A stretch of 64,000 nucleotides of DNA. It comes from a virus. Taxonomy: Duplodnaviria > Caudoviricetes. Made by a program: the position numbers and the translations under genes. Every line of letters begins with the position of its first letter. Position 1 is the first letter of the stretch. Below, piece after piece: positions 18,559 through 18,671 of the stretch. The stretch covers positions 1 to 64,000 of the IMG/VR virus record IMGVR_UViG_3300043726_000004; one strand, 5' to 3'. The notes under the pieces are model-generated. The model worked only from the letters and a program-made list of their open reading frames with translations, was not told the DNA's origin and made no database searches.

Positions 18559-18671
18559 TGCACAGGCAGGAAGCGGATGTGGGCGACCGGATTGCCGTGA
18601 ATGCCCTCACTGGTCCGGTTCTTAGGTATAAAGCCACAACGTCTGGGGGTTCAATTCCCTCCTGTGCACCG
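18559..18671 (+). ncRNA. tRNA-like element 2
   Basis: TGCACAG/CTGTGCA stem, GGGGG-TTCAATT-CCCTC T-arm, GGATGT/ACGTCT stem, internal ACCGGA/TCCGGT hairpin; ends ACCG. Confidence 0.65.

Follow-up and report, generated by a model that had tools for sequence, protein, structure and literature searches.

A conserved tRNA-like element without D-stem or anticodon in a soil phage: a candidate gene for an excised, non-decoding small RNA

Why would a phage that carries no transfer RNA (tRNA) gene keep an element that ends like a tRNA? The question is raised by positions 18559 to 18671 of the DNA studied here (the window), the first 64 kb of the 101.8-kb IMG/VR virus record IMGVR_UViG_3300043726_000004. 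An earlier note, made from the letters alone, had described this element (here E2) as the second of two tRNA-like elements of the same non-canonical design, the first being its sister E1. ARAGORN finds neither a tRNA nor a transfer-messenger RNA (tmRNA) gene in the whole record, and none of the Rfam families attains its gathering score anywhere in the window. We propose, at a probability of about one half, that E2 is the gene for a non-decoding small RNA on a tRNA scaffold, which would be excised from a longer transcript and act in trans.

Sequence and parts of E2 are as they had been described, with a T-arm, a terminal ACCG, a branched insert and no D-stem. Acceptor, T-arm and tail can be recognised in the letters themselves; the helices H2 and H3 and the bulge come from the RNAalifold consensus fold of three lineages. 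The parts are:

18559..18671, + strand: E2, the whole tRNA-like element from U-1 to the ACCG tail, 113 nt
18560..18565, + strand: acceptor 5' strand GCACAG, pairing with 18662-18667 and preceded by T18559
18566..18574, + strand: D-loop-like linker GCAGGAAGC, 9 nt, without D-stem
18575..18584, + strand: 5' strand GGATGTGGGC (RNA GGAUGUGGGC) of the long-arm helix H2, pairing with 18633-18644
18585..18620, + strand: branch hairpin H3, GACCGGA/TCCGGTT, with a 22-nt tip loop at 18592-18613
18621..18632, + strand: unpaired bulge of 12 nt containing GGTATAAA (GGUAUAAA)
18633..18644, + strand: 3' strand GCCACAACGTCT (RNA GCCACAACGUCU) of H2
18645..18661, + strand: T-arm GGGGG/TTCAATT/CCCTC
18662..18671, + strand: acceptor 3' strand CTGTGC, then the A73-CCG tail (ACCG at 18668-18671)

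The bulged long arm takes the place of the anticodon arm. A D-stem is absent in each respect that we considered: the stretch 18566-18584 holds no complement for one, the consensus fold has none, and in the alignment to a tRNA-Ser model (described below) the D-stem columns do not pair. The acceptor has 6 bp, or 7 if U-1:A73 is counted. The 7-bp stem starting with TG that the earlier note gave is therefore right in its letters, TG being U-1 followed by G1, and one pair too long as a conserved stem; with C at -1 in one relative, conservation does not extend to the seventh pair. A T-arm with a GTTCRANYC loop on an acceptor ending in N73-CCA is present in E2 as A73-CCG, and with ACCA in the relatives. 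E2 is a real tRNA-like element and not a product of chance: when the record was scanned for places where a T-arm with this loop, an acceptor complement of 6 bp no more than 220 nt away and a subsequent ACC occur together, E1 and E2 were the only two matches, both on the + strand, with none on the minus strand and a mean of 0.005 in 200 local shuffles.

Relatives were reached through the protein encoded upstream (15204-16031), homologues of which are 85% and 73% identical on metagenome contigs, and the small gene between the two elements led to a further contig. E2 is represented by three lineages (window, L005 and L004) and E1 by four (window, L138, L005 and L004), all copies being syntenic:

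L005:3123-3220: E2 homologue
L004:5150-5296: E2 homologue
L138:684-758: E1 homologue
L005:1947-2026: E1 homologue
L004:3228-3299: E1 homologue

The untranslated zone around the elements is likewise syntenic in the relatives, 70-80% identical and interrupted by many gaps. Two-sided changes are found at 7 of the 30 pairs of E2 (two in the acceptor, two in H2, three in H3). The acceptor of L004 has two compensatory double changes and its H2 carries GC to AU and GC to CG exchanges; the H3 stem covaries, reading GCCAG/CUGGC in L005, and a G-U pair in the T-arm of the window is A-U in the relatives. Acceptor pairs number six in the window and L005 and seven in L004. Two unpaired parts are also kept, namely the linker segment GCAGG..GCG, conserved in all three lineages, and the bulge motif GGTATAAAG (GGUAUAAAG), invariant in all three. 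The tip loop measures 22, 9 and 11 nt across the lineages, or is an extended hairpin in L004, and has no common sequence. The conserved part of E2 is its tRNA-like core (acceptor, GCAGG..GCG, GGUAUAAA bulge and T-arm), and its arm tip can differ from lineage to lineage. Taking E1 and E2 together, G1 (G+1) and A73-C-C are present in all seven copies and U-1 in six; an ACCA end is encoded in three of the five relatives' copies, including both E2 relatives, and both window copies read ACCG.

E1 follows the same plan as E2, but with a simple arm:

17411..17485, + strand: E1, sister tRNA-like element, with a 6-bp acceptor, a 9-bp arm, a 15-nt loop, a 6-bp T-stem and ACCG
17433..17447, + strand: loop of E1 with the conserved CCTACTCCT, invariant in four lineages

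Its six acceptor pairs and 6-bp T-stem form a stack of 12 bp, and it is much more stable than shuffled sequences (z-score -4.5). Across the four lineages the sixth acceptor pair reads C-G, U-G, U-A and G-C, three T-stem pairs have changed on both sides, and the arm varies in sequence with its pairing kept in each lineage; two-sided changes affect 4 of 16 pairs, and each of the four copies, folded individually, gives the same shape. The statement that the two elements share one design and keep pairing in spite of differing sequences is thus borne out by compensatory changes in the relatives; with three to four lineages, the covariation is suggestive. Both arms begin with GGATG(C/T)GGG, which fits E1 and E2 being paralogues. 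Further tRNA-like elements without a window counterpart occur at L005:1538-1653, L004:1713-1808 and L004:2994-3104, the last with a 7-bp acceptor, G3:U70 and A73 (an alanine mark) and a CCC end, so that L005 has three elements, L004 four and the window two. By design and placement, then, E2 appears to belong to a family made up of E1 and these further copies.

Other routes to the family gave little. Searches of IMG/VR by protein-based scans, element patterns and the promoter pattern returned no relatives, the matches being unrelated tRNAs, att-like fragments or chance; all 33 matches to the E1 pattern in representative prokaryote genomes were unrelated; phage GenBank records held no DNA match to the 3-kb untranslated zone; and contigs with homologues of the small gene and of the downstream gene were too short to lead further. 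Among the matches listed for the E2 pattern in metagenomes was one contig of an already known phage lineage.

Is E2 nevertheless a tRNA? Neither element was called by ARAGORN at standard thresholds in its standard, intron-allowed, mitochondrial (D-armless) or tmRNA modes; below these thresholds the program returned mismatched folds of poor quality at other places of the region, one of which overlaps E1, and ignored the real acceptor stems. Rfam at E<=10 gave no tRNA or tmRNA hit on the 141 nt around E2 and only mascRNA at 12.8 bits (gathering score 42.5), and there was likewise no tRNA or tmRNA call over 15900-19400 or in the relatives. Neither program, then, gave the confident ordinary or intron-containing tRNA that would have spoken against the earlier note. 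That E2 is an oddly shaped but functional tRNA, lacking a D-arm or containing an intron, and decodes during infection is barely credible. It has the acceptor stem, T-arm and A73-CC(A) end of one, and UUGC opens the tip loop in the window, as in tRNA-Ser(GCU); against this, the callers reject it even with introns or a missing D-arm allowed, the tip loops of 22, 9 and 11 nt in the three lineages contain no 7-nt anticodon loop and share no triplet that could serve as anticodon, deletion of the extra 18 nt restores no 7-nt loop, and its discriminator is A73, that of bacterial tRNA-Ser being G73. All known bacterial tRNAs retain the canonical cloverleaf (PMC11551756).

The likeness to tRNA-Ser(GCU) deserves a closer look. 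E2 has GGTATAAAGCC a few bases before its T-arm, as does the variable-arm loop of many bacterial tRNA-Ser(GCU), but differs from these in lacking a D-stem, a variable-arm stem, a 7-nt anticodon loop and G73. When metagenomes were scanned for GGTATAAAG at 9-17 nt from a T-loop, the matches listed were mostly genuine tRNA-Ser(GCU), in which the motif forms the variable-arm loop. A covariance model built from 20 of them aligned E2 end to end at 24.3 bits (L005 26.5; E ~1e-4), a score that is partly circular, the 20 tRNAs having been picked by a pattern derived from E2. In this alignment the D-stem columns are broken, and UUGC opens the anticodon loop and is followed by an 18-nt insert. The 5' half of E2, which played no part in the picking, is no more like tRNA-Ser than shuffled sequences are (132 of 500 score as well). 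Given the bias of the picking and the insignificant 5' half, descent of E2 from a class II tRNA is a reasonable lead and not a result. Two metagenome contigs (L080 and L091) contain the 3' portion of a tRNA-Ser(GCU), beginning with the anticodon loop, fused to G/T-rich ggtgaggtcaggtaag; this looks like the att junction of an integrated element. For E1 and E2 themselves an attP or integration remnant was considered and rejected, since each has its own complementary 5' acceptor strand, unlike any tRNA found.

If E2 derived from a tRNA, might both elements be functionless decay products of a former phage tRNA cluster? The phage has no intact tRNA gene, a motif of E2 is common to class II tRNA-Ser, and the number of elements varies from genome to genome (three in L005, four in L004, two in the window), as decay might leave it. 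Yet compensatory pairing is kept amid DNA that is 70-80% identical and rich in insertions and deletions, loops and bulges are invariant, and the T-loops remain canonical. We regard decay as very unlikely. Conserved placement, compensatory changes and the failure of tRNA callers together indicate that E1 and E2 are selected structured RNAs, neither relics nor ordinary or intron-containing tRNAs.

What would such an RNA do? Reading the locus from the sequence, we envisage that E2 is transcribed within the long untranslated G/U-rich trailer of an operon starting at the promoter near 6793. Ribonuclease P (RNase P) of the host would cut between U18559 and G18560, with the acceptor/T-arm stack, the T-loop and the A73-CC tail as its guides; the 3' side would be trimmed and possibly completed to CCA; and the released RNA of about 110 nt, stable through its likeness to tRNA, would act in trans on its tRNA scaffold, as a riboregulator or a protein decoy, with cutting of the trailer as a by-product. 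The features that RNase P and 3'-processing enzymes read (U-1/G+1, acceptor/T-arm stack, T-loop, A73-CC) are all found on E2, as the earlier note had pointed out, and the element lies downstream of an operon on its transcribed strand; these marks and the place in a long untranslated transcript make excision likely.

For the trans-acting role we take E1 as guide. Its conserved loop, CCUACUCCUU, can pair over 9-12 nt with the ribosome-binding regions of five phage genes, which start at 887, 1627, 3504, 4079 and, in record coordinates, 99373:

876..887, + strand: ribosome-binding site complementary to the E1 loop over 12 nt, gene start 887
1613..1621: ribosome-binding site complementary over 9 nt, gene start 1627
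3488..3497, + strand: ribosome-binding site complementary over at least 10 nt, gene start 3504
4061..4071, + strand: ribosome-binding site complementary over 11 nt, gene 4079-4657
record 99354..99369, + strand: ribosome-binding site complementary over at least 10 nt, gene start 99373
18789..18798, + strand: site complementary over 10 nt, with no gene behind it

Perfect sites of at least 10 nt number six on the + strand, and the minus strand of the phage has none; 1000 shuffled loops average 0.33 such sites and in no case reach six. Four of these sites are ribosome-binding sites, the fifth target being the 9-nt site at 1613. Predicted duplex energies lie between -13 and -19 kcal/mol. All five target genes lie at the two ends of the record, three of them as the first gene after a promoter, and in L004 the loop and a first-gene site both bear a matching extra GAG/CUC. 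Together these findings point to E1 being a translational repressor RNA, and we propose a trans-acting role for E2 by analogy with this arm tip antisense to ribosome-binding sites.

Several points weigh against the proposal for E2. The riboregulator idea comes from E1 by analogy, since complementarity of the E2 tip loop to the phage genome is not enriched (26 hits, shuffled loops giving 23.5). The earlier note had thought of stable small-RNA scaffolds, and E2 as a whole is not unusually stable compared with shuffles (z-score -1.26); its minimum-free-energy fold differs from the conserved consensus fold. The acceptor/T stack has 11 bp, one below the tRNA standard, and reaches 12 only through U-1:A73; the window copy ends in CCG instead of CCA; and covariation is thin, with three lineages only. 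What supports E2 is accordingly the comparison with relatives, that is, conservation. Nor did the E2 bulge show antisense enrichment against phage sequences, and the relatives' tip-loop motifs, taken as antisense, gave nothing consistent. The partner of E2, if there is one, may be a host RNA or a protein.

The surroundings bear on whether the elements serve anything beyond cutting. They comprise:

16040..17410, + strand: untranslated G/T-rich tract with 5-nt periodicity, upstream of E1
17719..17964, + strand: gene for a small conserved protein of 81 aa, lying between the two elements, with homologues at 85, 73 and 64% identity
17965..18558, + strand: G/T-rich 5-nt-periodic tract, upstream of E2
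18672..19230, + strand: G/T-rich 5-nt-periodic tract, downstream of E2
19244..19275, + strand: next phage promoter (TTGATT..N..TATAAT family), closing the untranslated zone and matching relatives too

The small gene is the only protein gene inside the 3.2-kb zone 16040-19240. A second zone, 25160-26130, likewise precedes a promoter, at 26132, and has no element of the E1/E2 type. Both zones are GGT-rich with an excess of G over C and T over A, and the autocorrelation of GG/GT peaks at 5, 10, 15 and 20 nt (+0.13 to +0.31) against about zero in coding DNA; the relatives L005 and L004 show the same periodicity. The tracts are (GGTNN)n-like and not a repeat array. The earlier note had supposed that the elements mark a long array for processing; a search for CRISPR-like or other repeats around them found none, so that the argument drawn from the missing cas6 falls away.

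The phage's own promoters form a sigma-70-like family (TTGATT/TTGACA, spacer, TATAAT), shared with relatives and present in 13 copies on the + strand, several with a conserved GGTCGGTGT before the -10 element:

1537, 2696, 4010, 6793, 19244, 21535, 26132, 28969, 31283, 34179 and 38225, + strand: promoters in the window
96424 and 99281 of the record, + strand: promoters beyond it

None of this type lies between 6793 and 19244, which makes the zone 16040-19240 the untranslated tail of a long operon that ends at the next promoter. Rho loads on C-rich RNA, and G-rich, C-poor untranslated RNA should load it poorly; transcription through such a trailer to E1 and E2 is therefore plausible, and we infer that the trailer RNA would escape Rho and be read through. 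As to the periodicity, a protein that binds 5 nt per subunit, a Rho-proof sense RNA and a signal at the DNA level are ideas worth considering. No description of 5-nt-periodic phage tracts was found in the literature.

A true tandem array was seen in an unrelated 331-kb jumbo-phage contig (IMGVR_UViG_3300005512_005684; L012:900-2700). It has at least 12 units with a period of about 137-150 nt, each consisting of a hairpin ACAACAC-N6-GTGTTGT, a mini tRNA-like unit and a G/T-rich spacer, (GTTNN)n, with 5-nt periodicity; the mini unit has a stem ACTCCTG/CAGGAGT around a T-arm with GGTTCGAYYCC. The array has no Rfam match.

Could E1 and E2 then serve only to have the trailer cut by RNase P and RNase Z, the excised pieces having no role of their own? 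Cutting might, for example, free the small gene at 17719-17964 as its own messenger RNA (mRNA), in the manner of tRNAs in mitochondrial transcripts. The two elements do flank the sole protein gene of the 3.2-kb zone and bear the features of processing substrates, and the unrelated tandem array alternates mini T-arm/acceptor units with G/T-rich spacers. Cutting, however, needs acceptor and T-arm only, whereas no lineage departs from the others in the E1 loop CCUACUCCU, the E2 bulge GGUAUAAAG or the D-like segment; the matches between E1 loop and ribosome-binding sites are far above chance; and the G/T-rich zone at 25160-26130 does without an element. Mere cutting is a possible account, in our view rather an unlikely one. 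The same three observations, that is, unpaired segments kept which cutting does not need, a second periodic zone without such an element and the antisense loop of E1, argue for a role of the excised RNA. The suggestion of stable small-RNA scaffolds in the earlier note thus gains from the conserved E1 loop antisense to ribosome-binding sites, which argues for the elements being more than cutting marks, and finds no counterpart in an enriched target of E2.

A different trans-acting role would be that of a decoy, in which E2 mimics a tRNA and occupies a host factor acting on tRNAs (a defence nuclease, a modification or processing enzyme, a synthetase), shielding real tRNAs or blunting defence. 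Phages counter tRNA-targeting defences using tRNAs of their own. With a decoy one would understand why the tRNA core and elbow are conserved and the arm tip is not, and why GGUAUAAAG is the variable-arm loop of tRNA-Ser(GCU); the phage also has other counter-defence genes (Tad3-like). The anticodon loop, the usual target of nucleases, is however not conserved, no tRNA-repair or tRNA-targeting gene is among the matches listed for the 69 + strand proteins scanned (minus-strand genes unscanned), and nothing points to a particular partner. We therefore hold a decoy to be decidedly improbable.

How does the proposed excised RNA compare with known systems? The C4 and CI RNAs act by pairing of a short loop with phage mRNA or nascent transcripts, the target of C4 being a ribosome-binding region. 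Like them, E1 and E2 would be small phage RNAs cut from a longer transcript by way of a tRNA-like acceptor end, and E1 fits closely. The C4 RNA of P1/P7 and the CI RNA of P4 are non-tRNA substrates of RNase P without an equivalent of the T-loop (PMC5499578), whereas E1 and E2 have a canonical T-arm. Complementarity between loop and mRNA is found in E1, not in E2 (the 26 hits against 23.5), and for an RNase P-made 5' end E2 offers sequence features only (U-1, G+1, A73-CC). The Rfam C4 model has no hit in the window, in the 141 nt around E2 or in 15900-19400.

Species 1 and 2 of T4 (rnaC and rnaD) are stable non-decoding RNAs with tRNA-like ends, processed alongside tRNAs in a tRNA cluster. They lie among real tRNA genes, and E1 and E2 in periodic G/T-rich trailers of a phage without any. 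The tRNA-like domain of tmRNA resembles E2 in its acceptor, T-arm, D-loop without D-stem and long helix replacing the anticodon arm; E2 differs in having A3-U70 instead of G3:U70, no tag reading frame, no pseudoknots and a length of 113 nt, and the Rfam tmRNA model gives only a partial match of 12.4 bits, beside E1. In two eukaryotic cases, mascRNA/MALAT1 and mitochondrial tRNA punctuation, RNase P and RNase Z cut at a tRNA-shaped module within a long transcript, which yields both a small RNA and processed flanking pieces. The mascRNA model scores 12.8 bits on E2 and 18.1 on E1 against the gathering score of 42.5; the likeness is one of shape only. The GOLLD and ROOL models have no hit in the window (gathering score), in 15900-19400 (E<=5) or in the relatives, and no RNA of the E1/E2 design was found in Rfam or in the literature searched. 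To our knowledge, non-decoding tRNA-shaped phage RNAs are scattered cases only, T4 species 1 and 2 and C4/CI, the latter without a T-arm.

In E1 and E2, a phage without any tRNA gene keeps, apparently under selection, RNAs with a T-arm and A73-CC(A) that have neither D-stem nor anticodon. Should they indeed be cut out and act in trans, the phage would be borrowing the maturation and stability machinery of host tRNAs to make regulators, and riboregulation on a tRNA scaffold could be put to the test directly at this locus. The periodic G/U-rich trailers may also prove interesting beyond it. On a bolder and, we think, unlikely reading, E1, E2 and the (GGUNN)n tracts would form one undescribed phage RNA system, in which tRNA-derived modules punctuate Rho-resistant, 5-nt-periodic trailers, are cut out by host tRNA enzymes and act in trans. 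E1 would then shut off the genes at the record ends through extended Shine-Dalgarno sites, E2 would hit a host or unknown target, an oligomeric protein would coat the tracts with 5 nt per subunit, and the L012 array, with its mini tRNA-like units and (GTTNN)n spacers, would show the system in a second form.

The wider setting is that of a lytic-looking phage from soil. All 12 sequencing runs found to hold window DNA are soil DNA; four runs yielded low-depth DNA contigs identical to the window, with no variant within E1 or E2, and also DNA of a relative that resembles it to about 88-90% around the small gene (17719-17964). Most phage genes lie on the + strand and include a primase-like DUF3854 protein, a ribonucleotide reductase, an SNF2 helicase, a DNA ligase and a family A DNA polymerase fused to a UDG domain. 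Among the matches listed for the 69 + strand proteins (minus-strand genes unscanned) there is no tRNA-related enzyme (CCA-adding enzyme, RtcB, synthetases).

Some further observations concern this gene content and tRNAs elsewhere. The phage has genes of a 7-deazaguanine (preQ0) pathway, namely QueC (41888-42613), a radical-SAM protein (QueE-like, 44080-44883) and GTP cyclohydrolase I (52856-53506); phages usually use this pathway for DNA modification. Beside the QueE-like gene lies a gene for a 409-aa protein (44953-46179) without a Pfam hit. The protein encoded at 58001-58891 has a Tad3 domain (inhibitor of type I Thoeris; E 1.9e-22). Finally, an AT-rich phage tRNA on another contig (L009:8900-8971, minus strand) is given a 4-base anticodon (aaag) in an 8-nt loop by ARAGORN and may be of the frameshift-suppressor type.
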